IMG/VR virus record: IMGVR_UViG_3300045988_062034
Direction: 5' to 3' (one strand)
Origin: a virus
Length of the DNA: 43,961 bases
The notes below the pieces were generated by a model. That model had not been told where the DNA came from. It was given only the letters and a program-made list of their open reading frames with translations, and searched no databases. Below, in pieces: positions 1 to 34,767 of the stretch; the stretch's first letter is position 1, and each line of letters starts with the position of its first letter. The position numbers were made by a program, and so were the translations under genes.

Positions 1-152
1 TACCGGCGCTGGGCCTCGGCGATCTCCTCCCTGTGGGCCTCGCGGTACCGGCGCTTGCCCTCGGCGATCTCCTCCCTGTGGGCCTCGCGGTACCGGCGCT
101 GGGCCTCGGCGATCTCCTCCCTGTGGGCCTCGCGGTACCGGCGCTGGGCCTC
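1..152. repeat. 45-bp tandem repeat, about 3.4 copies, in frame within the CDS above
   Basis: Units at 1-45, 46-90 and 91-135, plus a partial unit at 136-152. The second unit differs (cttgccc versus ctgggcc). Confidence 0.95.
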
Positions 153-158
153 CACCAT
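1..158 (-). CDS. 5' part of a coiled-coil-repeat plus HTH protein. The ORF runs off the window start and continues in frame at 43961 (see 43715-43961).
   Basis: ATG at 158-156. Reads MVEAQRRY, then 15-aa units REAHREEIAE(A/G)(Q/K)RRY. The frame is continuous across the 54-nt end overlap. Confidence 0.6.
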   Translation of the reverse strand, partial: MVEAQRRYREAHREEIAEAQRRYREAHREEIAEGKRRYREAHREEIAEAQRR

Positions 159-177
159 ACACCCACCGTCCACGGCC

Positions 178-711
178 TCAACTCTCACGATTTTGTTCAC
201 GGTACACCTCCATTTCCCGCACGCCAAACCTCAGCGCGTCCTCGTGACTGTCCATGTAGATATCCAGGGCTTGTCCATCGATCCCCGCCCCGGTGTCCTC
301 AACAACTCGCCAGCCGACGCCATCTATGTAGAGCTCCGTCCCTGCCGGCAGCACGTCCCAATCCGCCGCCACCGTGCGCCCCTCCTCCGGGACCGTGCCG
401 GAGGCCGTCAGCCCGCCGGACCACTGCCCGCAGCACTTTGCGCATGGGCAATAGGCATACACGGCGTATGTGCCCAGGCTCTCAAGCTCCGGCGTATCTG
501 CCTCCATCAGCTCCCGCGCCAGCACAGGCCCGCCGGAGTGCTTGTCCAGCGTGTGGGCGATGGATGGGCCAGCATCCAGCGCGTGGACTCCGCAGCAGGC
601 CGCAAGACAAATCCCAGTGGCAATACCGGTAAGGACGAGGTCTCGCACTGCGCTTGACGGCACCCACCGCCTTGTGGTATAATTCCTACTGTGTGATGGT
701 ATGCGATCCAT
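178..711 (-). CDS. Membrane-anchored 3D-domain (MltA/RlpA-like) cell-wall-binding or hydrolase protein
   Basis: N-terminal hydrophobic anchor (LVLTGIATGICLAACC). C-terminal motif TVAADWDVLPAGTELYIDGVGWRVVEDTGAGIDGQALDIY is typical of 3D domains. ATG 711 has SD gaagagg. The track start at 750 lies inside a hairpin. Confidence 0.7.
   Translation of the reverse strand: MDRIPSHSRNYTTRRWVPSSAVRDLVLTGIATGICLAACCGVHALDAGPSIAHTLDKHSGGPVLARELMEADTPELESLGTYAVYAYCPCAKCCGQWSGGLTASGTVPEEGRTVAADWDVLPAGTELYIDGVGWRVVEDTGAGIDGQALDIYMDSHEDALRFGVREMEVYREQNRES
654..683 (+). promoter_or_regulatory. Strong sigma70-type promoter on the plus strand, inside the 5' end of the minus-strand 3D gene
   Basis: TTGACG (654-659), 18-nt spacer, extended -10 TGgTATAAT (675-683). 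Confidence 0.6.
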
Positions 712-765
712 TTCGTGTACCTCTTCCGTGCCACGCTTGGTGCCAGACAAGCGTGGCTTTCTTAT
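690..765 (+). ncRNA. Candidate cis-antisense small RNA (about 75 nt) covering the SD and start codon of the 3D-domain gene
   Basis: Promoter at 654-683. Perfect 10-bp hairpin gccacgcttg/caagcgtggc (730-757) followed by tttctt. It overlaps the start codon (709-711) and SD (720-726) on the opposite strand. Confidence 0.45.
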
Positions 766-887
766 GCAACATAGGTTTTTTTGATCTCTACAGCGGTTTC
801 ATTGTGGTATTTCAGCCACAATTCGATTAGGTAATCCAAGTGCTCTTCTTTGAGGATCTTCTTCTCTACTTTTTTCTCGGACTCCAT
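762..887 (-). CDS. Small hypothetical protein (41 aa)
   Basis: SD aaggaggg lies 7 nt upstream of ATG 887. Tightly follows the stop of the upstream gene. Confidence 0.5.
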   Translation of the reverse strand: MESEKKVEKKILKEEHLDYLIELWLKYHNETAVEIKKTYVA

Positions 888-900
888 ATGTGCGCCCTCC

Positions 901-1092
901 TTACTGTTTTTTGTTGTCGCGTGCGTCTTGGTTAAGCTTGTTTCCATCTTCTTTCACCTCATTTCTGTTACCTATTGCTTCAAGGAACCATTCCAGCGGT
1001 TTCCCAGTCAGGGCCTCCACGGCCTCGCTGGTCAGTTTGCGAGAATTATGATTCTGCCGGACTAAATCAGAAACCTTGTCATTTTCGTTCAC
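901..1092 (-). CDS. Small hypothetical protein (63 aa), possibly a Cro-like DNA binder, first gene of the leftward operon
   Basis: GTG 1092 is preceded by aaaggagga. The segment KLTSEAVEALTGKPLEWFLEAI looks HTH-like. Confidence 0.4.
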   Translation of the reverse strand: MNENDKVSDLVRQNHNSRKLTSEAVEALTGKPLEWFLEAIGNRNEVKEDGNKLNQDARDNKKQ

Positions 1093-1113
1093 GATTAAAA
1101 ATCCTCCTTTTAC

Positions 1114-1142
1114 TTGCGGCTTGAAGGAGGATGTGGTATAAT
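1114..1142 (+). promoter_or_regulatory. Plus-strand promoter with extended -10
   Basis: TTGCGG (1114-1119), 17-nt spacer, TGgTATAAT (1134-1142). The 11-mer tgtggtataat is identical to the one at 673-683. Confidence 0.5.
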
Positions 1143-1148
1143 CTTCCT

Positions 1149-1226
1149 GCAAGCCTGATTGGCGTAATCAATTAGGTTTGCTGCCTCGCTGGGTGGTCTC
1201 AACACCTGGCGGGGCGCTTTTTGTTG
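1149..1226 (+). ncRNA. Candidate small RNA or terminated leader (about 75 nt, two hairpins)
   Basis: Hairpin 1154-1176. Terminator stem 1183-1215 (13 bp including G-U pairs) followed by cTTTTTgTT. No ORF. Confidence 0.4.
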
Positions 1227-1252
1227 TGGCCCCCACTCTTCCGTGGTATACT
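1224..1252 (+). promoter_or_regulatory. Promoter for the 1275 gene
   Basis: TTGTGG, 17-nt spacer, TGgTATACT (1244-1252). Confidence 0.45.
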
Positions 1253-1274
1253 GGAAAGGAAAGGATGGGATGAT

Positions 1275-1847
1275 ATGTCTTTTATAGAAAGTTTTTTGGA
1301 AGAACATGGCATCGAATACACGATTAACAGAAATGGAAGTATCCACACTGAAATCGGTTTGCCAAACTCGATTGACGGCGATAAATGTATTTGCTTTTAC
1401 CCAGATGCAGACATAAGACCTTTAGATGTGCTCACTAATCCTGCCGGTGACGAATATTTCATTTCCGAAGTGGAAACTGTATTCCAAGGAAACAATCCTG
1501 CATACTTGAAATCTACATATAAGACCCAAGCGCAAAGGGTAAAAAATGAGCAAACCATTTTTCACATTCAAAACGCCTATGGTTCGGTCATCGGAACAGG
1601 AAACCAAGCGACCATCAACTACAATTCAGCAGTAAGCGAATTAAGGCAAGCCGTTGCCTCCGATACATCTGCGGACAAAGAACAGCTTGAAAAAATCGTT
1701 GATCTGCTGGAAATGGTGGTCAATGAACAAGTTCCACCTTCTAAAGGCCTGTTTTCGAAGTTCAGCGCCGTTATGGAACGTCATTCTTGGATCTCAAGCT
1801 CTGTGGCTGGAACGATTCTTTCTTGGCTCCTATCCCAAATTCCGTAA
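1275..1847 (+). CDS. Hypothetical protein (190 aa) with a hydrophobic C-terminal tail. Candidate for a lysogen-expressed moron.
   Basis: SD ggaaaggaaagga upstream of ATG 1275. AT-rich. C-terminal WISSSVAGTILSWLLSQIP. No domain recognised. Confidence 0.6.
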   Translation: MSFIESFLEEHGIEYTINRNGSIHTEIGLPNSIDGDKCICFYPDADIRPLDVLTNPAGDEYFISEVETVFQGNNPAYLKSTYKTQAQRVKNEQTIFHIQNAYGSVIGTGNQATINYNSAVSELRQAVASDTSADKEQLEKIVDLLEMVVNEQVPPSKGLFSKFSAVMERHSWISSSVAGTILSWLLSQIP

Positions 1848-2001
1848 TCTCACACTCTTCAATTTGAAAAGTCACTTCAAGCTCCGTGCAGCCCCGCATG
1901 GAGCTTGAAATTTTGTAGTCCTGAACTTCTACGTTTTTGTCTCCAATCACTAAAAAAGAGCGCCCACCAAATTTGTGTATGGAGACTGTCTGTAAATCCA
2001 T
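1771..2001 (-). CDS. Hypothetical small protein (76 aa)
   Basis: SD gaaggggtgagag upstream of ATG 2001. The 3' 77 nt overlap the convergent gene 1275-1847, which lowers confidence. Confidence 0.35.
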   Translation of the reverse strand: MDLQTVSIHKFGGRSFLVIGDKNVEVQDYKISSSMRGCTELEVTFQIEECEITEFGIGAKKESFQPQSLRSKNDVP

Positions 2002-2021
2002 CTCTCACCCCTTCTTTCACT

Positions 2022-2050
2022 CCCGCCCCGTCAGGGGCGGGCTTCTTTTT
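2022..2050. terminator. Bidirectional hairpin terminator
   Basis: cccgcccc gtca ggggcggg followed by cttcttttt on the plus strand, with an A-rich flank on the other side. Confidence 0.6.
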
Positions 2051-2207
2051 CTTCATTGGACTTCTGCTGGACCTTTTTTCGGCGTTTAGGCTTGTCCCGA
2101 ACGCCCTCGGCATATCCAGCGATATAAAGTAACGCTTCTTTGGGGAGACCTACTAGGCGATCCGCTATAATCTGTGCATCGGATACTCTATCAAGGTTTA
2201 TGCTCAT
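2031..2207 (-). CDS. Small hypothetical protein (58 aa) with a basic C-terminus
   Basis: SD ggaggtg upstream of ATG 2207. Driven by the promoter at 2271-2299. Confidence 0.55.
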   Translation of the reverse strand: MSINLDRVSDAQIIADRLVGLPKEALLYIAGYAEGVRDKPKRRKKVQQKSNEEKEARP

Positions 2208-2270
2208 TGGTTCACCTCCATTTTCGTTTTGACCTTGGTATAACGCGTCAAAAGCTAACCTTGTGAGATT

Positions 2271-2299
2271 ATGATAGCACATAAATAAAACTATGTCAA
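2271..2299 (-). promoter_or_regulatory. Minus-strand sigma70-type promoter
   Basis: TTGACA (reverse complement of 2294-2299), 17-nt spacer, TATCAT (reverse complement of 2271-2276). Confidence 0.6.
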
Positions 2300-2339
2300 T
2301 CACTTTTTCTGAAACAGAAGAAAAAAGATTGACATAGTT
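2289..2339. repeat. Perfect 13-bp inverted repeat (aactatgtcaatc / gattgacatagtt). Each arm carries the -35 of one of two back-to-back promoters. Putative operator pair.
   Basis: Arms at 2289-2301 and 2327-2339. Confidence 0.8.
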
Positions 2340-2357
2340 AGATTTTAGTGGTATTCT
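2329..2357 (+). promoter_or_regulatory. Plus-strand sigma70-type promoter
   Basis: TTGACA (2329-2334), 17-nt spacer, TGgTATTCT (2349-2357). Confidence 0.65.
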
Positions 2358-2368
2358 TTTTGCAAGAG

Positions 2369-2887
2369 GTGATTTACATAGACCACAGAAAGAGATTAAA
2401 AAATATATGGTACGGAATGAAGCGAAGATGTAGTCGACCAACTCCGAGCGATTACATATATGGAATAGCTGACCACTATTATTCTAAGGGCATTCATGTT
2501 TGCGATGAGTGGAACGATAGTTTTGAGGCATTCTACACATGGGCTGTTTCACATGGTTATAAAGATGGTCTAACGATTGATAGAATAGACTCAAACGGAG
2601 ATTATGATCCATCAAATTGTCACTGGATTACTCGAAGTGAAAATTGCAAAAAAGCTGCATTAAGCAAAAGCGGTAACAAACGAGGATGCCATAGCAGAAG
2701 ATATTTTGTAATAAAGCGTATCTGCGGATATGATTGGGGAAAAGTGTTAGCAATAAGACTGAGTTACTCAGACGCAATTCGTTTTATCAGAAAAACACCA
2801 ACGAAACCAGGTGTTGTTTGTGTCATTAAGAAGTATTCTAGAGAAACTATTGGGATAGACCAAGGTGATTTTATAATGGGGGGGTGA
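2369..2887 (+). CDS. Homing-endonuclease-associated or AP2-like DNA-binding family protein (start uncertain)
   Basis: Motifs LKNIWYGMKRRC, GIHVCDEW, FYTWAVSHGY and LTIDRIDSNGDYDPSNCHW. The track start at 2348 overlaps the promoter. Possible in-frame starts are GTG 2369, ATT 2372 and ATA 2378, after SD agaggtga. Confidence 0.55.
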   Translation: MIYIDHRKRLKNIWYGMKRRCSRPTPSDYIYGIADHYYSKGIHVCDEWNDSFEAFYTWAVSHGYKDGLTIDRIDSNGDYDPSNCHWITRSENCKKAALSKSGNKRGCHSRRYFVIKRICGYDWGKVLAIRLSYSDAIRFIRKTPTKPGVVCVIKKYSRETIGIDQGDFIMGG

Positions 2888-2891
2888 GTAT

Positions 2892-3254
2892 GTGAACGAG
2901 CGAATTGCAAAAATTCGAAAAGATGCGAATTTAACTCAAGAAGAATTTGGTGAAAAGATTGGAAAATTAAGCAAAAATTACATTTGGATGCTGGAAAAAG
3001 GCGATAGAAAACCCAGCGACCGCACCATTGCCGATATCTGCCGAGAATTTAATATCTCTGAGCTTTGGCTACGTACCGGAGAAGGCGAGCCTCATACCCA
3101 GAAGGACGAGGACGAAGAGTTCCTTGAAGTTATGGAACGGATTCATATGTCAGACGATGATCTAATTAAGCGGATTATAAAGGCGTATTGGCTTATGGAT
3201 GACGACGAAAAAGCCGCCATCAGAAAACTGATAGACGGCTTCACAAAAAAATAA
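2892..3254 (+). CDS. XRE-family HTH transcriptional regulator (candidate phage repressor)
   Basis: IRKDANLTQEEFGEKIGKLSKNYIWMLEKGDRKPS is a classic HTH_XRE motif. GTG start follows SD ggggggtgag. Confidence 0.8.
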   Translation: MNERIAKIRKDANLTQEEFGEKIGKLSKNYIWMLEKGDRKPSDRTIADICREFNISELWLRTGEGEPHTQKDEDEEFLEVMERIHMSDDDLIKRIIKAYWLMDDDEKAAIRKLIDGFTKK

Positions 3255-3278
3255 GGCCCCGGTTCCCCGGGGCCTTAT
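3251..3278. terminator. Perfect 12-bp hairpin between convergent genes
   Basis: ataaggccccgg ttcc ccggggccttat. Confidence 0.65.
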
Positions 3279-3281
3279 TGA

Positions 3282-3416
3282 TTATTCCTTATGTAGTTTT
3301 TCAAGGATAAGGGCACGCGTGAGGAGAGCTTTTAAATAGTTTTCATTTTTATTCCGAGCAAGGACAAGTTCAATTTCTTTCCTGAGTGTATCAACAGTTT
3401 CTTTCCTCGGCGTCAT
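3282..3416 (-). CDS. Small hypothetical helical protein (44 aa). Below the ORF-track length cut-off.
   Basis: SD aaaggaggg is 6 nt upstream of ATG 3416. Reads MTPRKETVDTLRKEIELVLARNKNENYLKALLTRALILEKLHKE. Confidence 0.5.
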   Translation of the reverse strand: MTPRKETVDTLRKEIELVLARNKNENYLKALLTRALILEKLHKE

Positions 3417-3481
3417 GTTGCGCCCTCCTTTAATTGTTTTTCCGGGCGGAATGCCCTATTTTATATTTGGAGGATTGGAAA

Positions 3482-3910
3482 ATGAAAAAAGGTTTCATTG
3501 CCGGTGTTTTGACAGCACTGCTTGTTCTGGCGATGGTAGGCAGCGCTGGGGCTACCAATGGCAAAGTTCAAAAGGAAATCGAATACCGGGATATCAAGGT
3601 TTCTCTGGACGGAGAAGTTCTTGATCTGCGAGATGCAAAGGGGAATGCCGTGGAGCCGTTCATGTTCGGCGGCACCAACTATATCCCCGCCCGCGCTCTG
3701 GCGGAGTCTCTTGGCCTTGAAGTAGCATGGGAAGAGGCCAACAGCACCGTTGTCCTCACGCATCCAGAATCATCAAAGCCCACATATATCACTCGCACAG
3801 GTTCAAAATTTCACAACGATTCAAGTTGTAATGGTGGAACTTATTGGGAAGTCCCATATTCTACTGCCATTGGAATGGGATTGACCCCCTGCGAAAAATG
3901 CGTCCATTGA
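3482..3910 (+). CDS. Secreted protein with a signal peptide, a copper-amine-oxidase-N-terminal-like (stalk) domain and a C-terminal Cys motif
   Basis: MKKGFIAGVLTALLVLAMVGSAGA signal. Motif TNYIPARALAESLGLEVAWEE. C-terminal KFHNDSSC...PCEKC. SD ggagg upstream of ATG 3482. Confidence 0.65.
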   Translation: MKKGFIAGVLTALLVLAMVGSAGATNGKVQKEIEYRDIKVSLDGEVLDLRDAKGNAVEPFMFGGTNYIPARALAESLGLEVAWEEANSTVVLTHPESSKPTYITRTGSKFHNDSSCNGGTYWEVPYSTAIGMGLTPCEKCVH

Positions 3911-3918
3911 GGTGAGAT

Positions 3919-4083
3919 ATGGCAAAGAAGAAAAGCAGCTTGAAAATCCCCGGCCTATCTTTTAGCTGGAAACGTGCAACAGGCATTACAGCGGCAAAAC
4001 GTAAAATCGCAAAGGCCACAGGAATACCTACAACCAAATCCGGCAGGCGAAACAAAATTGGGAAAATCTTTGGCATAAAATAA
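3919..4083 (+). CDS. Small, very basic hypothetical protein (54 aa). Below the ORF-track cut-off.
   Basis: SD ggtgag upstream of ATG 3919. Reads MAKKKSSLKIPGLSFSWKRATGITAAKRKIAKATGIPTTKSGRRNKIGKIFGIK. Followed by a hairpin. Confidence 0.45.
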   Translation: MAKKKSSLKIPGLSFSWKRATGITAAKRKIAKATGIPTTKSGRRNKIGKIFGIK

Positions 4084-4088
4084 AAGAT

Positions 4089-4121
4089 GGCCCCGTCGCC
4101 TATGCGACAGGTGACGGGGCC
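4089..4121 (+). terminator. Hairpin terminator
   Basis: ggccccgtc ... gacggggcc followed by ttat. Confidence 0.5.
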
Positions 4122-4200
4122 TTATAGCAGACCCACAACTTTACAGACCGATCTGCTATGGGTCTATCTTAGCAGATTGAAAGGTGCTGCGTCTATAATC

Positions 4201-4276
4201 AAGCCTTGTTATTTCAACACCAAAGTTTGTAATGCGGCTATCCAAACCTTGTAATTTTAAAACCAAACCTTAGAAT
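4201..4276 (+). promoter_or_regulatory. Four phased direct repeats (consensus CCAAACCTTGTAAT) overlapping a promoter
   Basis: Repeats at 4201-4213 (degenerate), 4220-4233, 4242-4255 and 4263-4276, period 21-22 bp. TTGTAA (4249-4254), 16-nt spacer, TAGAAT (4271-4276). Confidence 0.6.
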
Positions 4277-4296
4277 CTGCTTATTGGAGGCCCCAA

Positions 4297-4701
4297 ATGG
4301 AGGTATTAATTAAAGATTTATGTAAGGAGAAAAAAGACTCTTTAAACTTAACAAACCAAAACATAGCAGATAGAGCAAATTTATCTGCGTCTACTGTTAA
4401 CAACTATTTTTCAGAATCATCCAAGGCCCCGTCTGTCTATACAGTTGGTCCGATCTGCGCGGCTCTCGGTGTATCGCTTGACAGTTACTTCGGGATCAAG
4501 TCCAAAAAAGAATCGGATAGGGATGAGGATAACCTAGAGCTTCGCTTGAAGTATGAACAGGAAAAATATTCTCTTCTGCGGAAAGGGATCATACATAGAA
4601 ACAGGGTCATTACTGCTTTGTTTGTCTTGTGCGCAGTGCTACTTTGCTATGCAATAATTATTGACTTTTTGAATCCAGCCATCGGTCTTATTAGACGATA
4701 A
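4297..4701 (+). CDS. Membrane-anchored XRE-family HTH protein
   Basis: N-terminal LTNQNIADRANLSASTVNNYFSE HTH. C-terminal transmembrane segment VITALFVLCAVLLCYAIIIDFL. Confidence 0.7.
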   Translation: MEVLIKDLCKEKKDSLNLTNQNIADRANLSASTVNNYFSESSKAPSVYTVGPICAALGVSLDSYFGIKSKKESDRDEDNLELRLKYEQEKYSLLRKGIIHRNRVITALFVLCAVLLCYAIIIDFLNPAIGLIRR

Positions 4702-4851
4702 TTTTGAACCACATGCGTCGTGTGGATAAATTATAGAACATTAGTTCCATTAAAGCAATAGCCACACCTCCCAATTAAATTCTATCTATTTTGTTAAGCC
4801 TGTAGAATTTGTCTGGCGAAAACAAAAGAGACGTTTATTGGACTTTTAGTG

Positions 4852-4860
4852 TGGTATTAT
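4852..4860 (+). promoter_or_regulatory. Extended -10 element (TGgTATTAT). Possible start of a plus-strand non-coding transcript ending at 5143.
   Basis: Same tgtggtat motif as at 673, 1132, 1242 and 2348. No good -35. Confidence 0.35.
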
Positions 4861-4959
4861 ATAGCATCTTTGGTGCAGGGCGAGGTATTAGCCCATCAGG
4901 ACAAGTCTTACCCCACTTGAAAATCTCACACAAGGCGGTTATACTGGAAACAGAAAAGA

Positions 4960-5137
4960 GGCGCTACCGGCAGACGGTTAGCCCCTCGCTGTGTTACAAG
5001 AAGTAACTGCCAGGTTGGGAGCCGGGGCGGTTACTTCCCAAAAAAGTATAAGGCGGCGCTACCGGCAGACGGTCAGCCCCTTATGCTTGAGCTACAAGAA
5101 GTAACCGCGCAGTTGGGGAACTGGGGCGGTTACTTCT
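4960..5137 (+). repeat. Two direct copies (78 and 82 nt, period 95) of a hairpin-rich unit. A third partial copy is inverted at 5277-5296.
   Basis: Each unit starts ggcgctaccggcagacggt and ends with the stem gaagtaac(t/c)gc...ggcggttacttc. Confidence 0.85.
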
Positions 5138-5220
5138 TTTTTTGCCTGAAAGAACAGGACAATAATGCCGATGATCACAAGGCAGAACTGAAACAGCTCT
5201 GAACATGTAAGCATAAGCAT
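5092..5220 (-). CDS. Small hydrophobic peptide (40-42 aa), holin-like or type I toxin-like
   Basis: M(LM)LTCSELFQFCLVIIGIIVLFFQAKKEVTAPVPQLRGYFL has one transmembrane helix followed by KK. The SD ggggg is buried in the hairpin ccccctc cgaaa gaggggg. ATG at 5220 or 5214. Confidence 0.45.
   Translation of the reverse strand: MLMLTCSELFQFCLVIIGIIVLFFQAKKEVTAPVPQLRGYFL
5097..5143 (+). terminator. Rho-independent terminator oriented for the plus strand, overlapping the 3' end of the minus-strand small ORF
   Basis: 12-bp stem agaagtaaccgc / gcggttacttct followed by TTTTTT. Confidence 0.7.
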
Positions 5221-5302
5221 CACCCCCTCTTTCGGAGGGGGCAAGAAGTCCCCTCCGGGATGGAGGGGCCAACCGCCTACCGTTGCAGGTAGCGCCGAAT
5301 TG

Positions 5303-5331
5303 AGGATAGCATATTGTGGCGGGAAATGCAA
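5303..5331 (-). promoter_or_regulatory. Promoter for the small hydrophobic ORF
   Basis: TTGCAT, 17-nt spacer, TGcTATCCT, read on the minus strand. Confidence 0.5.
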
Positions 5332-5415
5332 GGGGAAGCCCAGCCTAGCACTCGATGTTAAGCAGAGGGTGGGAAAGCTATATTGTTCGCTGTCAGGGGG
5401 AAAGGGGCAGGAGTT

Positions 5416-26563: not shown

Positions 26564-26732
26564 TTTCCCTCCGAGCAAGGGAAAAGGAAGCCACATCTCT
26601 GCGGCCTCCTTCCCTCGTAGTCTGGTTCTTTGGCAGGCGTGGCGTTCTCCTGCATCTCTCGGGTTTCCCCTGTCAATACCATCGGCGTGTGGATGCCACG
26701 AAATTGTCCACCTCAAAGAACCATTCTATTCT
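26564..26732 (-). promoter_or_regulatory. Structured 5' leader of about 165 nt with mutually exclusive hairpins, one of which sequesters the SD and start codon of the KTR gene
   Basis: 9-bp closing helix (26714-26722 with 26624-26632) around several hairpins, including a GAAA tetraloop. Stem 26579-26614 competes with the sequestor 26563-26570/26578-26585. Confidence 0.45.
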
Positions 26733-28836: not shown

Positions 28837-30255
28837 TCATTCTACTTCTGTTTGACTTTCCGTGGTTAAGTCCTCCATCCGAGGAAGTGCTTTTTTTGCT
28901 TCGTCCGGGCTTTCATTCATCCATTTGGCCCGAAATTCCCAATCGTTCATGATGCCCGCTTGAAGCAACTGCATATCTCTGGAAAAATCTGTCGCTTTGT
29001 CCTCAATAATGCTGTCATCAAAGTCCACAGAGATCTCAATATCCTCATTCAGTCCGGCGTTCATGGACGCGTTGCCCAGGCGGAGGATAATGCGGCACAG
29101 CTCCACCAGCACTTGCTCCAGAATGATTTCATGTTTTTTGATCGTGCGGAACATGGTGGAGTTTTCGCTGATAACTTGTGTCGCCGTGGTGATGCTCCCA
29201 CCATCAAAGCGATAATAGGTCTCTCCGAAACCGCACTTACTGGACAACAAATTGAGCTGGTCCTGGATGCCTGTATTGTGCTCCTGTGTGCGGAGGGTCA
29301 TATCGATTGGGGTAATAACTGCTCCGTCACTCACATCCTCTGGGAGCACATAATAGGCCAAATCGTCGCTGTCAAAGACCGGCTCTCCGTCTAGGTATTT
29401 CATGGCAGATGGCTTGACCATGATGCGCTTTTTCCCTAGGACAAATTCGTTGACGTAACTGTCATAGGCCACGTCTGCGCCCTTTAAAACATCAATGGAA
29501 TTTGCATAGATGGATATTCCAAGTGGGGAATCGTCAAAATTGTTTGCGATATTGGGCCGGTCAATGACAAACCGCCGCCGGTCAGACCCTGTATGTACCA
29601 CCCGTGGCACCCGTTTAAAGTTTGGCACAGAGGTTAAGCCCACTTCGGTGTCCACATTGTTGTTCCGGTATTTATATAGTCGGTTCTCAATGTCATACAG
29701 CCCGTTGACCTTGTGGTGGATTTGCAGGTAACAGTATTGCTCTCCGTTTACGGTAACAATGCTGTCAAAAGCGCACTCCGTAATGATTCCGTTTTGCCAC
29801 GCCAGCGGCCAGATGTGCTCCACGGTCACATAGTCCATCACAATGCCTCTTGCGCTGCCTGGAACGGGCCCAGTCTCCTTTGCCTCCATTCCCACCACAC
29901 GCGGAATAAAAGCCACTGTCCCAAGAGCAAACGCCTTTTCCTGCATCTCGTTTGCTTTGACCAGGAAATTATTTTCAGTGAACACTCGGTCAACGAACGC
30001 CTGCTCTTTCTGCCCCTCTAAAGTGATTTTTACCTTCTCATTCATCAGGAGGTTTGCCCAGTCCTCCGGGATTTTCTTACCCATGTTGAGAGTGTACCGC
30101 TTGCATCGGACCATGCTCGTTCCGTTTCGGACCTTGTACCGGTGGAAGCCCTTCACATCTCCCACATACCAGGACTTCCACTCCTGCACTTTTGTGTAAA
30201 ACTCCTCCGGCACGGTGGCGTAGCCCAGTTGTTTGAGTTTGTCGATTACGTTCAA
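28837..30255 (-). CDS. Portal protein (SPP1 gp6-like)
   Basis: 472 aa, directly downstream of TerL. Confidence 0.8.
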   Translation of the reverse strand: MNVIDKLKQLGYATVPEEFYTKVQEWKSWYVGDVKGFHRYKVRNGTSMVRCKRYTLNMGKKIPEDWANLLMNEKVKITLEGQKEQAFVDRVFTENNFLVKANEMQEKAFALGTVAFIPRVVGMEAKETGPVPGSARGIVMDYVTVEHIWPLAWQNGIITECAFDSIVTVNGEQYCYLQIHHKVNGLYDIENRLYKYRNNNVDTEVGLTSVPNFKRVPRVVHTGSDRRRFVIDRPNIANNFDDSPLGISIYANSIDVLKGADVAYDSYVNEFVLGKKRIMVKPSAMKYLDGEPVFDSDDLAYYVLPEDVSDGAVITPIDMTLRTQEHNTGIQDQLNLLSSKCGFGETYYRFDGGSITTATQVISENSTMFRTIKKHEIILEQVLVELCRIILRLGNASMNAGLNEDIEISVDFDDSIIEDKATDFSRDMQLLQAGIMNDWEFRAKWMNESPDEAKKALPRMEDLTTESQTEVE

Positions 30256-31493
30256 GCGGTCACCCCCATTCTGCGGAACGCGCGCTCCAGCGCATACCGT
30301 GTCGCGTCGATCAGATGGTTATTCTCGTCAGGATACCCGCTGATGATGTCCCCATCCTTGTTGCGCTCGTATTCGTAGTTTACAAACTCGTCATAGGCAT
30401 TCGGCGTCCTGCGACGGTCAATTACGATCCTCCGGCGCTGAAGCCACTTCATGCTGTATTCCACACTCCCAGGCCCTTTGATTGCCTCTTTGGCCGGGAG
30501 GCCCATCGCCCGATAGTCTGCTGATGATTTAGGCTCTGCGCTGTCGCAGGTAATGTAAGCATCCTTGTATCCTCTGGAAAGAATCAACTTCGCGCTCTCC
30601 TCGTTGGTCAGCTTATTTTGGTATATCTCGTCCATTAGGTATATTGTCTCCCTGGCTCGGTCATAGTGGAGACGGATAAAGGCAAATGGGTCTGGGAACC
30701 AGCCCCAGTCCACACCCTGATAGATGCGGTCAAACCGAGACGTCTCTTCATCCGTGATTTCCCGCAGCTCCAGATTTTCAAACACATTTCCGCCAGTCCC
30801 GACAGCTTCGCCCAAGTACTCATGCCGGTATGCTCGCTCATCTGTTTCCTTTAGGTGTTCGGCCTCTGCTAAAAACTGCGCCCCCAGCCATTCAGGCGGG
30901 GCCTCCAGGTATGTACTCTTGTGGCACAGCCGGTCCGTCCGCTCCTCCAGGCTGTCCTTATTGGCCCAGTTGTCCCGGCTGATCGGCGGGTTGTAGCTCT
31001 CAAAATTCCAAAATTTGGAGCCTCCGCGCATGGTGGATTGTAGGATAGTGCGGATTTCAGCTCGCCCAGCAAACTGGTCTTTTTCCTCAAAGTGTGTGAC
31101 AGCGATATAGCCAAACGGCACCTTGATAGACTTGATCTTCATGGGATCGTCAGCACCACGGAACATAATCTTCTGCCCGGTCGGCCTATAAATCAGCTCC
31201 ATTGGCTGGACTTTGGCATCCCAATACTGCGCCATGCCCAGCTCTCCAATTGCCCAAAGATACTGAGCATACACGCTGTCCCGAATGGTGTTTGCCACCT
31301 TGCGGAGCACCAATGCATGAGTACACGGATTATTTATCAAAAGCAATGGGACCAGCAATGACACACAAGATGATTTCAGGGAGCCACGCCCACCGGAAAG
31401 GTCGTAGTGAGTGTGCCCGTGCTGGAACACGTCACGGGCTAGCAAGTGGAAAGCGGGGCCAATAACAGAAGAAAGCCGCACCTCAGACATCAA
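30252..31493 (-). CDS. terL: Terminase large subunit (PBSX-type)
   Basis: Walker A GGRGSLKS. C-terminal nuclease motifs DWGW...DP and NHLIDATRYA. Confidence 0.9.
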   Translation of the reverse strand: MMSEVRLSSVIGPAFHLLARDVFQHGHTHYDLSGGRGSLKSSCVSLLVPLLLINNPCTHALVLRKVANTIRDSVYAQYLWAIGELGMAQYWDAKVQPMELIYRPTGQKIMFRGADDPMKIKSIKVPFGYIAVTHFEEKDQFAGRAEIRTILQSTMRGGSKFWNFESYNPPISRDNWANKDSLEERTDRLCHKSTYLEAPPEWLGAQFLAEAEHLKETDERAYRHEYLGEAVGTGGNVFENLELREITDEETSRFDRIYQGVDWGWFPDPFAFIRLHYDRARETIYLMDEIYQNKLTNEESAKLILSRGYKDAYITCDSAEPKSSADYRAMGLPAKEAIKGPGSVEYSMKWLQRRRIVIDRRRTPNAYDEFVNYEYERNKDGDIISGYPDENNHLIDATRYALERAFRRMGVTA

Positions 31494-31863
31494 TAATCAC
31501 CTGCACCTTGCCCTCTTCCCCTTCGCTCTTGACGAGCGCCCATTTATCAATCAGCGTCCCGATTGCCGTAGTGACCTCGGAAGCAGTTTTTGCGGTTTGG
31601 ATCTTCTCCGGCAGCACGGCAAGGCCCACCTCGATGATGTCGCAGACCTGCTTTCTCCGGCTGTCCATATAGGCCAGGATGTCGGCGGTGTTCTCCTCTT
31701 TTTTTCGTTTGAGATTTTCGGTGATCCCTTGAGATTCTTCAATAACTCGTCTGACTGTCTGTCCGCAGACTCCATTTTTTTTTGCCGTGGCGTTATAGCT
31801 CTCGGTTTCCAGATAATCAGCCACTATTTTCTTTTTTTGCCTATCCGTCAGCCGTGCAGCCAT
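31483..31863 (-). CDS. terS: Terminase small subunit (HTH type)
   Basis: ARLTDRQKKKIVADYLETESYNATAKKNGVCGQTVRRV. SD gagaggtgg upstream of ATG 31863. Confidence 0.7.
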   Translation of the reverse strand: MAARLTDRQKKKIVADYLETESYNATAKKNGVCGQTVRRVIEESQGITENLKRKKEENTADILAYMDSRRKQVCDIIEVGLAVLPEKIQTAKTASEVTTAIGTLIDKWALVKSEGEEGKVQVIIDV

Positions 31864-32346
31864 GATCGCCACCTCTCATATAGTTTCATTTTATTGAGGA
31901 GAGAGCGGACCCCGCTCCCCGCCCTCTCCTGATTTGCTGTGGGCCACCCGCCGCAGCTCGGGGCACATCCATAGGGCCGCCCATATCCTCATGCAGATAG
32001 GAGCGGCATATATGCGCTGTCCCATTTAGATTGTCACACCTTGCGCCCAAAGCCGACCTACGGCTCTGGATGGTACGCACGGCAGTTTTCAGCGGGATAG
32101 CGCCGCATGGGATAGCCTCTGTCTCCCATCTTCCGCCCCGAGGCAGGAGCGGGCGTCTTGGCCCTTCTCCGGGCCCATCAGACGCTCTAGGGTCACCGGT
32201 ATAGTGTCTTTCCACAGTCAGCCCCGTGTACTTTGGAGCGGTTTGATTTTGCAGGGGCAGCCTCGAAAGGCATCCCTGCGCATTACCCCCAGGTTATACG
32301 CCTAACCCCCGATTGTGGGGAGGCCTCGCAAGGGAGTTGTTTAAGT

Positions 32347-32417
32347 TGCCCTCGTCCGGACTCGAACCGGCGCACACCCATATCTTCGGGCCGCTCTCCC
32401 AACTGAGCTCCAAGGGC
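32347..32417 (-). tRNA. tRNA-like element with intact acceptor, D and T arms but a defective anticodon arm (Ile-GAT-like). Possibly a pseudo-tRNA.
   Basis: GCCCTTG GA GCTC AGTTGGGA GAGC G GCCCG AAGATA TGGGT GTGC GCCGG TTCGAGT CCGGA CGAGGGC A. 71 nt, 6-nt anticodon loop, no U33, G-A mismatch in the T stem, no encoded CCA. Confidence 0.5.
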
Positions 32418-32613
32418 GTATAGCCCTTCCGGGCTATGTTGCAGGTTTACGGCTTTGCCTGCGTGCCGCTGCCGGGAGGGAGGCCCGGCAATGAGAAAGG
32501 AGGAGGAAATGGAAGGGAGCGGGAGGCATTCGCCCCCACGCTCCCATTGTCGCATATGACCCGGTTATTATGCCTCCAAATGGAGGCATGTACAAAATAT
32601 TTTTGCGATATGT

Positions 32614-32841
32614 TTAAAGATTGTGTTCCTGCTCTCCATCATCCCAACAAAGATCGTCCAAACTGACGTAGTAATAATTGGCTATCAGTTTTAGCTCCGT
32701 CAATCCCGGCTCTCGCTCACCGCGCTCATACCGCCTTAGCGCATCGTGGCTTAGACCTATCAACTCAGATGTCACCGCCATACTCCGCACTGGACGCCTG
32801 CTCTCCCTCAGCCTCCTCAACCGCTCCGGGAACTCATTCAA
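32614..32841 (-). CDS. XRE-family HTH regulator (75 aa)
   Basis: ERLRRLRESRRPVRSMAVTSELIGLSHDALRRYERGEREP. TTG start after SD aggagggg. Confidence 0.75.
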   Translation of the reverse strand: MNEFPERLRRLRESRRPVRSMAVTSELIGLSHDALRRYERGEREPGLTELKLIANYYYVSLDDLCWDDGEQEHNL

Positions 32842-32864
32842 CGGCCACCCCTCCTAAAAAATAT

Positions 32865-32893
32865 CAGATAATTTTAGCATTTTGTCTTGACAA
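32865..32893 (-). promoter_or_regulatory. Minus-strand promoter
   Basis: TTGTCA (reverse complement of 32888-32893), 17-nt spacer, TATCTG (reverse complement of 32865-32870). Confidence 0.5.
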
Positions 32894-32915
32894 CTAGGCA
32901 ATATTGGCGTATAAT
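32887..32915 (+). promoter_or_regulatory. Consensus sigma70 promoter for the plus-strand island
   Basis: TTGACA (32887-32892), 17-nt spacer, TATAAT (32910-32915). Its -35 overlaps the -35 of the divergent promoter. Confidence 0.75.
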
Positions 32916-32962
32916 ATAATCACAGCAAGGGACCGGGCAGATCAAAACTAGGAGGAGCAAAA

Positions 32963-33193
32963 ATGGAGAAATACGGATTGACGGACGAAACTATCGAGAT
33001 CCTGACGGGGAAAGCGGAAAAAATTATGAGCTACTATGACAGCTACAAGTTGGACGCGCGCGAGTGGAAAAACTACGGGAAGCACCGGGTATATGTCACG
33101 GTTAGCGGCTATCATGGAGATGACCTCCAGAAGACCTATAAACTTGCTTGGGTCGATATGGATAACGAGCAAAAAATCACCTGGCAATATTAA
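32963..33193 (+). CDS. Small hypothetical protein (76 aa)
   Basis: SD aggaggag. No domain recognised. Confidence 0.65.
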   Translation: MEKYGLTDETIEILTGKAEKIMSYYDSYKLDAREWKNYGKHRVYVTVSGYHGDDLQKTYKLAWVDMDNEQKITWQY

Positions 33194-33242
33194 CGCAGGA
33201 AACGTCCCGCCCCGGAGGTTACGAGGGCAGAAGGAGAAAAAA

Positions 33243-33494
33243 ATGGAAGTAAGAGAAGTTATCAAGATTAAAGAGTGGGTTGACGGAAGCGGATATAACT
33301 ACGAGGAGATATACAGCGACAAGCTTGTAGACGTAGCCGCCGAGGAGGACGTACAAGGAGACTTTGGCTGGGACTGGTGGGAGAAAGTTGAGCCCGCCAC
33401 TGGGACCGGGGACTTGAGGATTGTCGTGGAATATCACAGAGTATCAGATGATACGATGATCGCAAAATTTGAAGCATGGCAAAGCGAAATCTAA
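33243..33494 (+). CDS. Small, strongly acidic hypothetical protein (83 aa)
   Basis: SD gaaggaga. By my count, 21 D/E versus 8 K/R. Trp-rich. Confidence 0.65.
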   Translation: MEVREVIKIKEWVDGSGYNYEEIYSDKLVDVAAEEDVQGDFGWDWWEKVEPATGTGDLRIVVEYHRVSDDTMIAKFEAWQSEI

Positions 33495-33548
33495 AAACAG
33501 AAATCTCACCCCGAAACTCACGATGGCAACAAAAAAGGAGGATGTAAA

Positions 33549-33887
33549 ATGGAAAAAGCCAATGAAATCACTCTTATCGCTATGTCCTACTTCGGCGGGA
33601 AAGCAGTAGTCAAGTTTTCTGAGGACGGATGGGATGTCGTGTCCGATGACCGCAAAGCCCAAGATGGATATCTCCACTTGGACGCTTCCGCGCCTGGCGG
33701 CATCCCGGATGACTTAACCGAGCCTGTCAAAATACAGCTTATGCGTTACCTGTACAAGCATCACCATGACCTCCCCGGCCTGGGAGTTCCACCTCAAATC
33801 AAGTATTTTAGGGGATATAGTCTGGATGACGTGGAGCGGCTCGGTAACGACGGTGAGCACGGATACTACAACCAGGTGATCAAATGA
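33549..33887 (+). CDS. Acidic hypothetical protein (112 aa)
   Basis: SD aaaggagga. By my count, 18 D/E versus 12 K/R. Confidence 0.65.
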   Translation: MEKANEITLIAMSYFGGKAVVKFSEDGWDVVSDDRKAQDGYLHLDASAPGGIPDDLTEPVKIQLMRYLYKHHHDLPGLGVPPQIKYFRGYSLDDVERLGNDGEHGYYNQVIK

Positions 33888-34165
33888 GACGGAAATATGG
33901 AGACTGTATCCGGGCAGACGGCGACTGCACCGTCTGCCCCCTGGTGTCTTACGGACGTGACTGCCGCAATAAGCCAATCACAAATCTGGAGTGGGCCCGC
34001 CGCCGTGAGCACATGAGCCTCGACGAGCTATCAGCGCGGTCCGGCGTCAATAAAAGACAGATCCAGCGCATCGAGCAGGGCGAGGGTAAGATGGGCAACG
34101 TCACCCTCACCAATGCTCTGGCTCTGGCGGACGCGCTGGACGTGGATGTGAGGGAGCTGCTGTAA
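33884..34165 (+). CDS. Cys-rich N-terminus fused to an XRE-family HTH (Aca-like position)
   Basis: CIRADGDCTVCP...C, then LSARSGVNKRQIQRIEQGEGK. ATGA coupling to the upstream gene. Confidence 0.75.
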   Translation: MRRKYGDCIRADGDCTVCPLVSYGRDCRNKPITNLEWARRREHMSLDELSARSGVNKRQIQRIEQGEGKMGNVTLTNALALADALDVDVRELL

Positions 34166-34196
34166 TGTGCGCTCTACCGCGCATCCCCCCCGCGCC

Positions 34197-34226
34197 AAGC
34201 CGCCCCATCACAGGGGCGGCTTTTTT
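34197..34226. terminator. Bidirectional terminator between convergent operons
   Basis: aagccgcccc atcaca ggggcggctt followed by TTTTgTTT. Confidence 0.75.
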
Positions 34227-34432
34227 GTTTCCCCGCCGGGCGGTTCCGGCAGCGGCATCCAGTGAGTCGGTGGTGTGTCGCAGTCGGTATAATACTCCGC
34301 ATCTGTGATGGAGTACCACCCATCATCAAGCTCATATTTCCCGCCAACAGCCATTTGGGAGGTCTCAAAACACAAAAGTACATCTTTGTCTGGCACTGGC
34401 AGTCTATCCACCACGCTGATCCACTCGCTCAC
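34208..34432 (-). CDS. DUF551-like protein
   Basis: WISVVDRLP...THWMPLPEPP. Confidence 0.6.
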   Translation of the reverse strand: MSEWISVVDRLPVPDKDVLLCFETSQMAVGGKYELDDGWYSITDAEYYTDCDTPPTHWMPLPEPPGGETKKPPL

Positions 34433-34767
34433 GTTTCCCCACCCTCCATTTCAATCAAAAACGCCGCATTGCAGGCCAAATGCCACAAATGAGGCAAGCC
34501 GCTCTCCTGATCGTACTGCTCGCCTTTGAGATAGGCCAGCCAGTGCCGGTACAAAGCATCCCTGTAGCGCTGCGGCTCAACCTGATGCCAGTTGTCCGGA
34601 TCGTGGTACTTGGCGCACCCAAACATGCGTACCGCTGCCACGGCCTCAATCAGCGAGACCGGGACCAGCGTGGGGCGCGGCTTCCCGGCGTCGGCTTTGG
34701 CATCTGCTCCGATCCCTCTCGGCCCACGGTTAGGGGACACAGCCTCAGCAACAACCAGGCTATCCAT
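34429..34767 (-). CDS. DUF5664-like (dATP/dGTP diphosphohydrolase-like N-terminal domain) protein
   Basis: KPRPTLVPVSLIEAVAAVRMFGCAKY...RHWLAY...ESGLPHLWHLACNAAFL. Confidence 0.5.
   Translation of the reverse strand: MDSLVVAEAVSPNRGPRGIGADAKADAGKPRPTLVPVSLIEAVAAVRMFGCAKYHDPDNWHQVEPQRYRDALYRHWLAYLKGEQYDQESGLPHLWHLACNAAFLIEMEGGET

Follow-up and report, generated by a model that had tools for sequence, protein, structure and literature searches.

A plus-strand island between early and late genes

The viral record IMGVR_UViG_3300045988_062034 is a temperate genome of the siphovirus type, from a phage of Oscillospiraceae (Intestinimonas type) that is also present integrated in genomes of Intestinimonas butyriciproducens. 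We refer to the whole stretch of DNA that was analyzed, 43,961 nt, as the window. Between the 3' end of its early and replication genes (a DUF551 gene and a gene for a dNTP diphosphohydrolase N-terminal domain) and its terminase genes, the window carries an island of four small plus-strand genes, A to D, with a helix-turn-helix (HTH) gene, E, diverging from it (Table 1). An earlier reading of this DNA, made from the letters alone (here the sequence-only reading), had singled out the island as an interruption of a minus-strand genome and as a candidate counter-defense operon; gene E went unmentioned in it. The open reading frames (ORFs) bear out this orientation, as do the GC and AT skews, which change sign in the 33- to 34-kb bin only and so fit a plus-strand island within a minus-strand genome.

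Most of the anatomy that had been described was confirmed. The perfect promoter lies where it had been placed, and a Shine-Dalgarno site precedes every gene (AGGAGG for A, GGAG for B, AGGAGG for C, and GGTGA for D, read straight from the sequence). The first three products have the sizes given (76, 83, and 112 amino acids [aa]) and, as stated, no recognizable domain, with no match to A, B, or C in Pfam, NCBIfam, or PADLOC. The charge counts were exact, at 21 Asp/Glu versus 8 Lys/Arg in B and 18 versus 12 in C; the label of small acidic proteins fits B strongly and C mildly, and A is near neutral to mildly acidic. The last gene is indeed coupled to C through ATGA and encodes a Cys-rich segment followed by an XRE-family HTH. 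The unit had also been said to end at a strong bidirectional terminator. The hairpin is present, but its T-run is on the plus strand only and the DUF551 gene merely ends inside it, so the bidirectional part of that claim did not stand. The HTH gene shares the promoter and terminator of the genes upstream of it, which we call cargo, and a like layout was found in the related units described below.

Table 1. Features of the island and of the surrounding phage genome
Feature	Position	Strand	Description
Gene A	32963-33193	plus	76 aa; isoelectric point (pI) 5.6, near neutral; orphan
Gene B	33243-33494	plus	83 aa; pI 4.2; orphan; ATG at 33243, not 33244
Gene C	33549-33887	plus	112 aa; pI 5.2; translationally coupled to D
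Gene D	33884-34165	plus	93 aa; ATGA overlap with C; last gene of the island
Island promoter, TTGACA-17-TATAAT	32887-32915	plus	Perfect sigma-70 consensus, score 12/12
Proximal operator (putative), GGCAATATTGGC	32897-32908		Imperfect palindrome in the -35/-10 spacer, abutting the -10
Distal operator-like site, GATAATTTTAGCA	32867-32879		Upstream of the -35
Intrinsic terminator	34197-34232 (hairpin 34197-34222)	plus	10-bp stem with 8 GC pairs, 6-nt loop, then TTTTTTGTTT
Gene E	32614-32841	minus	75-aa XRE-family HTH protein; divergent; start abuts the island
DUF551 gene	34208-34432	minus	Convergent; 3' end falls inside the island terminator
Early/replication genes	~43.7 kb down to 34208	minus	ERF, SSB, DnaB, dATP/dGTP diphosphohydrolase N-domain protein, DUF551 protein
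Structural and packaging genes	Reach down to the terminase genes at 30252-31872	minus	
XRE genes (two)	2892-3254 and 4297-4701		Lysogeny module, left end
Serine recombinase	5383-6720		Lysogeny module, left end

Promoter and operator sites

The island promoter is the sole perfect TTGACA-17-TATAAT on either strand of the 43,961 bases, with 0.02 expected from shuffles, and a promoter of the form TTGAC[AT]-17-TA[TC]A[AC]T is kept, perfect or with one mismatch, in every locus of the D family that was examined. The imperfect palindrome in its spacer has a family counterpart: the consensus CGCYAATATTRGCG occupies the same spacer position, flush with the -10, in 47 distinct promoter/leader sequences, whatever the cargo. 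This consensus was found in the spacer of all loci whose D protein has the helix SGVNxRQIQR (in fuller form, SGVNxRQIQR[IV]E). A single D, that of locus L035, has a different recognition helix (SGIHPAQLQKIE), and there the spacer carries TAGTCAATTGAGTA instead, with a reverse-complement copy of TAGTCAATTGAGTA also upstream. From this covariation of sequences, we regard the proximal operator as the putative binding site of D. A site so placed, between the -35 and the -10 of a consensus promoter, implies that repression works by occlusion.

The distal operator-like site lies 30 bp from the proximal one, center to center. It falls within a block of 29 nt that is invariant among relatives, the alignment columns being invariant from AAAAATATCAGATAATTTTAGCATTTTG onward, while synonymous sites have diverged by 0.2 to 0.8 across the same relatives. 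Related loci show TGCTAATATTAGCA or GCTAATTTTAGC at this position, and a second operator copy just upstream of the -35 occurs in several lineages, the window included. Read on the minus strand, positions 32871-32879 give (as the reverse complement) TGCTAAAAT, an extended -10 at a position that would suit gene E; judged by its sequence, it is likely the promoter of E, and the promoter scanner made no call there. Further copies of the two operator-like sequences were sought across the window, and nothing above chance was found.

In many loci with different cargo (e.g., L111, L138, and L161), the motif CAT(N)TAAACAAGAGAGGGG-N4-CCCC directly precedes the AGGAGG Shine-Dalgarno site. Such a GGGG-N4-CCCC leader looks like a small hairpin, and the leader of the window (32916-32962) is without one. 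RNAalifold gave no consensus structure for the conserved 5' leader of D-family operons, and a search of Rfam over 31.7 to 34.4 kb gave no match, even at E values up to 1.

The regulator D and its Cys4 module

The HTH of D is C-terminal (HTH_3 at residues 35-92, E = 9.5e-10). It is preceded by a module of four cysteines within 27 aa, C8, C15, C18, and C27 (C-x6-C-x2-C-x8-C), which we call Cys4 and which is covered by no Pfam model. In the alignment, the four cysteines and most residues of the peptide MRRKYGDCxRxDGxCxxCxLVxYGRDC are invariant down to 52% overall identity; this region is the most conserved part of D, more so than the HTH itself. A literature search for the peptide found none.

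By phmmer against all PDB chains, the nearest matches of D are C.AhdI (E = 0.002) and the HTH domain of AcrIIA15 (E = 0.03); no chain named Aca was returned, the content of Aca chains in this library being unchecked. D also draws matches to the PADLOC model "Control_protein," and it has no match to the MqsA family model TIGR03830. With tblastn, one match was found in 50,697 phage records, to an unannotated metagenomic record, and none was found in plasmids.

The Cys motif of D also occurs in tiny ORFs beside integrase genes in metagenome-assembled genomes (MAGs) of Spirochaetales, Desulfobacterota, and Planctomycetota. In its free-standing form, the motif reads YCxQNxGxCxTCSLVNYGRDC, with the same spacing as in D, and lies in ORFs of 45 to 130 aa next to tyrosine-integrase-like genes (L049, 3962-4261; L051, 3968-4114; L052, 1538-1924 and 511-861; L053, 910-1185). 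The L049 to L053 ORFs come from MAGs of Spirochaetales, Thermodesulfobacteriota, Chitinivibrionales, and Desulfobacteraceae. Being covered by no Pfam model, the module seems to represent a small, so far undescribed domain of mobile elements. Within D, we predict that it binds metal and is needed for function, for dimerization or for sensing.

Cargo is exchanged around a constant promoter, operator, and regulator

The sequence-only reading had asked whether related phages swap small genes at this position, and they do. We compared ~76 non-identical units, drawn from contigs encoding the same proteins and from scans anchored on D. All of them keep the promoter, the spacer operator, and the D gene, and between these they carry cargo of at least 10 families, combined in at least 8 ways. 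Acidic residues outnumber basic ones in nearly all cargo families, with two about balanced; the strongly acidic examples include X2 (22 Asp/Glu versus 5 Lys/Arg), Y (26 versus 7), and a further protein with 30 versus 8.

In ~25 loci, the set of E and A-B-C-D is kept between early genes and terminase, also in genomes with another type of terminase or another replication module, and alleles of the set are shuffled among these loci. At locus L016, an E and a D that are 93% and 98% identical to those of the window bracket X1 and the very acidic X2 in place of A-B-C. More distant D proteins (49 to 68% identity) follow other small genes: Y, X2 alone, the families F5, F7, and F9, or an A-like gene together with the 30-versus-8 protein. 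X2 is represented by 36 loci. The alternative cargo proteins X1, X2, and Y found nothing in Pfam, PHROGs, NCBIfam, or PADLOC.

The cargo gene Y was found in 80 viral contigs, beside D in 33 of them and elsewhere beside a second HTH type or no HTH. The second HTH type is unrelated to D and has its own spacer palindrome within its own perfect promoter. The cultured Blautia phage Montmirail also has a Y homologue, as an inverted gene that lacks annotation. At the Y loci L090 (2425-3177), L105 (2501-3177), and L127 (2438-2827 and 4181-4657), we saw perfect promoters with the spacer palindromes CCACCAATTTAGTGG and GCACCAAATCGGTGC; the HTH protein there (112 to 158 aa, ending in ...RTxxNWESGxSxxPEYV) may be a second candidate regulator family for Y. 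D does not come last in Y-type loci: a basic protein of 136 to 141 aa with two zinc-ribbon-like CxxC pairs is translationally coupled to its 3' end (L028, 5282-5692; L030, 1351-1761; L033, 5279-5704; L034, 5279-5692). Larger Cys-rich proteins were seen in L029, L035, and L091.

Cargo proteins A, B, and C

All five genes, A to E, are under purifying selection, with ratios of nonsynonymous to synonymous substitution (dN/dS) of 0.05 to 0.39 (A, 0.11 to 0.30; B, 0.10 to 0.39; D, 0.08 to 0.29; E, 0.05 to 0.08). The products of A, B, and C have no hydrophobic or transmembrane segment and are expected to be soluble. In PHROGs, A has a single weak match to a family of unknown function (phrog_5091, E = 0.0012), and B and C have none; sequence searches of the PDB with the three proteins singly gave no match. 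Among 5.8 billion proteins, all three found close relatives only, from human-gut metagenomes and I. butyriciproducens genomes, those of A all at 82% identity or more. An A-like gene of 62 aa is also present in L033, alongside different partner genes. The check by structure prediction and Foldseek that had been suggested came back empty: the AlphaFold2 models were of low confidence (predicted local distance difference test [pLDDT] 64 for B and 57 for C) and too poor for fold comparison, and nothing in the PDB fell below E = 0.3 for either (best for B, E = 0.38).

C founds a wider uncharacterized domain family, recognized by the motifs GYLH, LPGLGxTPQxxYF, and ExIGNxGxxxYY and comprising 36 clusters in a profile search of 1.84 billion cluster representatives. 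The domain either stands alone or forms the C-terminal part of proteins of 160 to 360 aa. In one metagenomic protein of 288 aa (P0058), it follows an N-terminal Csx16-like domain (PF09652, 62 bits; TIGR02620, 34 bits). Csx16, found in type III CRISPR loci, has been proven to act as a cA4 ring nuclease, and viruses also use ring nucleases against type III CRISPR (PMC12409355). From this single fusion, it is a speculative possibility that the C-like domain (GYLH/LPGLGxTPQ/IGN) is a new family acting on the cyclic-oligoadenylate signaling of type III CRISPR. Other fusions of the domain were seen in P0054, P0056, P0060, P0065, P0080, P0082, and P0083, and several of these have an unannotated middle motif, YNxxxNEGGxGY[IV]P, in common. 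A profile of 27 C-family sequences found no real match in the PDB (HigB, at E = 0.32, aligned to the His-tag region), and tblastn of C found none in the 50,697 phage records.

The divergent gene E and the gap beyond it

Gene E matches HTH_3 (E = 5.9e-9) and HTH_31 (E = 5e-8) and, below the cutoff, the RstR-like model NF041951 (E = 1.4e-11). It adjoins the unit in loci of the A-B-C and X1-X2 types. In Y-type loci, the divergent neighbor is a Bro-N gene and the E-like gene lies elsewhere, from which it follows that E belongs to the phage backbone and not to the unit. We also considered an obligatory two-repressor switch of E and D and rejected it, because the D unit occurs without E.

Between E and the small terminase gene lies a GC-rich, ORF-poor gap of 741 nt (31873-32613, minus strand as sense). 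Its predicted fold is far more stable than those of shuffled sequences (z = -4.57), and it is mosaic among relatives, in segments 1-267, 374-420, 458-534, and 574-741, with a version in an Intestinimonas genome that is without ~200-600. A structured RNA, a pac region, and inserted elements are candidate explanations for the gap. Inside it, at ~32345-32415 (minus), we noted a tRNA-like element with a D-arm, a T-arm, and acceptor pairing, and with an abnormal anticodon loop. ARAGORN made no call for it in the window. The element is also present in relatives (L001, 4795-4872; L002, 4800-4872; L010, 5085-5162; L013, 3450-3523; L019, 3463-3535), where ARAGORN called "tRNA-???" with a 4-base (aata) or 2-base (ga) anticodon and once tRNA-Ser(aga). 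Possible identities are a tRNA in decay, a tRNA resembling frameshift suppressors, and a tRNA-like RNA module.

Other features of the phage genome

Next to the DUF551 gene, at the end of the early region, the gene at 34429-34767 (minus) encodes a 112-aa protein that is the N-terminal domain alone of the dATP/dGTP diphosphohydrolase family (PF18909, E = 6.8e-28; phrog_801). Also in the early region, at 42895-43683 (minus), a 262-aa protein has a DUF7666 domain followed by collagen-like triple-helix repeats. Positions 1-7000 of the window have a G+C content of 0.39 to 0.50, versus ~0.53 elsewhere, with genes on the plus strand; these encode the two XRE proteins, a protein with a Cu-amine-oxidase N-terminal domain, and the serine recombinase. 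A 3D-domain protein at 178-750 lies in a stretch of 0.60 G+C, which could be flanking host DNA or else the opposite end of the early operon. Among the head-morphogenesis genes, a skipping-rope RNA (RF02924) was found at full length at 26625-26721 (minus), with 53 bits versus a gathering score of 36.7.

A proposed autorepressed cassette and its alternatives

In acr-aca loci, anti-CRISPR (acr) genes are accompanied by an anti-CRISPR-associated (aca) gene for an HTH autorepressor; the regulators comprise Aca1 to Aca13 and the ribbon-helix-helix Aca14. The sequence-only reading had likened the island to such loci for its strong promoter, its small and mostly acidic orphans, and its 3' HTH gene, and the comparison with relatives strengthens this likeness. 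As a whole statement, we tentatively favor the view that the island is a self-contained, autorepressed accessory cassette of the acr-aca type whose cargo is most plausibly anti-defense. Its regulatory half, a burst cassette autorepressed by D, we consider probable on strong comparative evidence; the anti-defense role of the cargo would be a further step.

On this model, host RNA polymerase alone would fire the perfect promoter once the DNA is in the cell, giving A, B, and C and, through translational coupling, D. D, presumably dimeric, would bind the palindrome in the -35/-10 spacer and shut down the operon; in the lineage of the window, it would also bind the second site three helical turns upstream, which overlaps the putative divergent promoter of E. 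A, B, and C would then be exchangeable small soluble cargo, most likely binding and neutralizing host proteins, most plausibly components of anti-phage defense. What suggests interference with the host, and with its defenses in particular, is that the cargo consists of exchangeable, small, soluble, and mostly acidic orphans with several per operon, and that the same cargo (Y) occurs under different regulators, which is a pattern of acr loci. The Csx16 fusion of one distant C-like domain is the only direct hint, and it is a single metagenomic protein.

Several further observations weigh against this model. No cargo protein resembles a known anti-defense protein by Pfam, PHROGs, NCBIfam, PADLOC, or PDB sequences, and the low-confidence structure models found nothing with Foldseek. 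By the PDB chain search, in which the content of Aca chains was unchecked, D was assignable to no described Aca family. The fixed A-B-C trio of the ~25 related loci could equally be one joint machine. In the C family, His, Tyr, Glu, and Asn positions are conserved and the domain is fused to larger proteins, features closer to those of an enzyme or of a dedicated binding domain than to those of a fast-evolving inhibitor. Finally, prophage-expressed genes, too, typically run against all of the lytic genes and have a promoter and a terminator of their own.

This last point also favors an alternative in which the cassette is a moron that benefits the lysogen, be it by superinfection exclusion, a small defense system, or some other trait of lysogenic conversion. 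In keeping with this, the phage is temperate, and integrated copies exist in I. butyriciproducens genomes. We think a moron unlikely, given that no PADLOC defense model matched beyond generic HTH matches, that A, B, and C are very small proteins with neither a membrane segment nor an enzymatic domain, and that a self-limiting autorepressor suits a transient burst better than constitutive protection. A second use in the lysogen would be that of an antirepressor or secondary immunity module, comparable to immI of phage P22. Here, the cargo would inactivate the main prophage repressor or the repressors of co-resident prophages, D and E would silence it in the lysogen, and the loss of D binding would lead to induction. 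Small acidic antirepressors are known in other temperate phages. The promoters lie back to back between two small repressor-type genes, E and D, the module lies between early and late genes much as immI lies away from the main switch, the divergent neighbor in Y-type relatives is an antirepressor-type Bro-N gene, and the invariant Cys4 module could serve as a sensor. Set against these, D and E are XRE HTH proteins and not ribbon-helix-helix proteins like Arc and Mnt, an antirepressor role would not call for three cargo genes together or for an exchange among 10 or more families, the D unit is found without E, and a perfect promoter restrained by its own product alone would leak antirepressor in the lysogen. 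We give this explanation a low probability as well. The place of the island in the genome also bears on another idea, that it is the immunity side of the genetic switch, which the sequence-only reading had put forward as its alternative. The lysogeny module (recombinase and two XRE genes, at 2.9 to 6.7 kb) is 26 kb away, and D units exist without E, so that this idea is not supported. A main CI/Cro switch was likewise rejected, as the island lies between the early 3' end and the terminase genes.

Closest in its evidence to the cassette model is a general early takeover of the host, in which the cargo would inhibit housekeeping targets (RNA polymerase, replication, division, or nucleases) and not immune systems. 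The architecture speaks for both equally, a strong promoter of the host type driving small acidic immediate-early proteins is typical of host-takeover genes in lytic phages, and the conserved polar residues of the C-like family agree with such a role. However, housekeeping targets are conserved, so that wide swapping of cargo among close relatives is less expected than with variable defense repertoires, and the Csx16 fusion points towards CRISPR-related biology; on balance, we regard takeover of housekeeping functions as improbable. Far less probable is a toxin-antitoxin or abortive-infection module, with C as the toxin and D as a zinc-plus-HTH antitoxin of the MqsA or HigA type. A toxin-like gene followed by an overlapping XRE gene with a Cys-rich N terminus is superficially like mqsR-mqsA and higB-higA, but the Cys spacing of D is unlike CxxC...CxxC, D misses TIGR03830, C is acidic and unrelated to RelE, MqsR, or HigB (its lone PDB match, HigB, being on the His-tag region), and the gene upstream of D varies (C, X2, Y, and others) as a cognate toxin would not. 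For the MqsA type, this misfit of Cys pattern and family models, together with the variable upstream gene, led us to reject it.

A bolder view of D is that it is a metal- or redox-sensing switch (Zn or Fe-S) and a new class of regulator of phages and mobile elements, one that would release exchangeable cargo, whether anti-defense or antirepressor, in response to a physiological signal; in a strict anaerobe, oxygen or oxidative stress would be examples. It draws on the greater conservation of Cys4 than of the DNA-binding domain and on the free-standing mini-proteins beside integrases in unrelated phyla, and we consider it quite unlikely.

For phages of strictly anaerobic gut Clostridia, anti-defense genes have hardly been explored, and homology is a poor guide to them. 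Should D prove to be an Aca-like autorepressor, its MRRKYGDC...LVxYGRDC peptide and the promoter with an operator in its spacer would be sharp anchors for guilt-by-association mining; through these two marks, roughly 100 gut phage contigs already yield at least 10 candidate families of small, mostly acidic proteins. Confirmation of D would also give the Aca repertoire a regulator that has a metal-binding module. If the cargo genes instead encode antirepressors, they would define a new induction circuit in abundant gut prophages.

Comparison with known systems

Four known systems resemble the island in part. Like MqsA antitoxins, D has a Cys4 segment ahead of an XRE HTH and is a small protein encoded after an overlapping upstream gene. 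Unlike them, it has a different Cys spacing in a much shorter module (27 aa, versus a CxxC...CxxC zinc domain of ~65 aa), lacks a TIGR03830 match, and follows a variable gene that is not MqsR-like. The controller proteins of the C.AhdI type share with D a small XRE HTH, an own operon, and palindromic promoter sites, and C.AhdI itself is the best PDB match of D. However, these proteins have no Cys4 module, the island has no restriction or methylase genes, and D is the last gene and not the first. The operator of D within the spacer of a perfect promoter implies pure repression, unlike the switch between activation and repression of controller proteins. A restriction-modification controller was accordingly rejected as an identity for D, there being no restriction-modification gene in the operon or adjoining it in the window. 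With P22 immI (mnt/arc-ant), the island has in common a second regulatory region off the main switch, divergent promoters, and two small repressors that would control small effector genes. It differs in that its repressors are XRE HTH proteins and not ribbon-helix-helix proteins, its autoregulator is last in the operon, its cargo is multiple and exchangeable, and E is not always present.

The closest likeness is to acr-aca loci. In Aca regulation, an inverted repeat overlaps the promoter, and a second upstream repeat is found in ~40% of aca1 operons; zinc-finger regulators of acr operons have been raised as an open question only (PMC13551039). Bidirectional regulation is reported for Aca11 and Aca13 (PMC12282945). 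The island differs from these loci in that D is not similar to any Aca of solved structure by the PDB chain search (the Aca chains in that library being unchecked), that the invariant N-terminal Cys4 module is not described in the Aca literature examined, that no island cargo is a known Acr, that the hosts are strictly anaerobic gut Oscillospiraceae, and that the operon has the opposite orientation to the phage genome as a whole. Because no membership in a known Aca or Acr family could be demonstrated, the class assignment is to be read as "works like" and not as "is a member of." The likeness itself is extensive: a strong promoter, an operon in which a conserved HTH gene comes after one to three small orphans, an inverted repeat in the promoter core with sometimes a second one upstream, cargo that varies beside a conserved regulator, and the same cargo with different regulators. 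Control of a divergent promoter is a possible further parallel (PMC13551039; PMC12282945). The architecture is thus of a known kind, while the Cys4 regulator family, its operator, the cargo families, and the host group appear to be undescribed.

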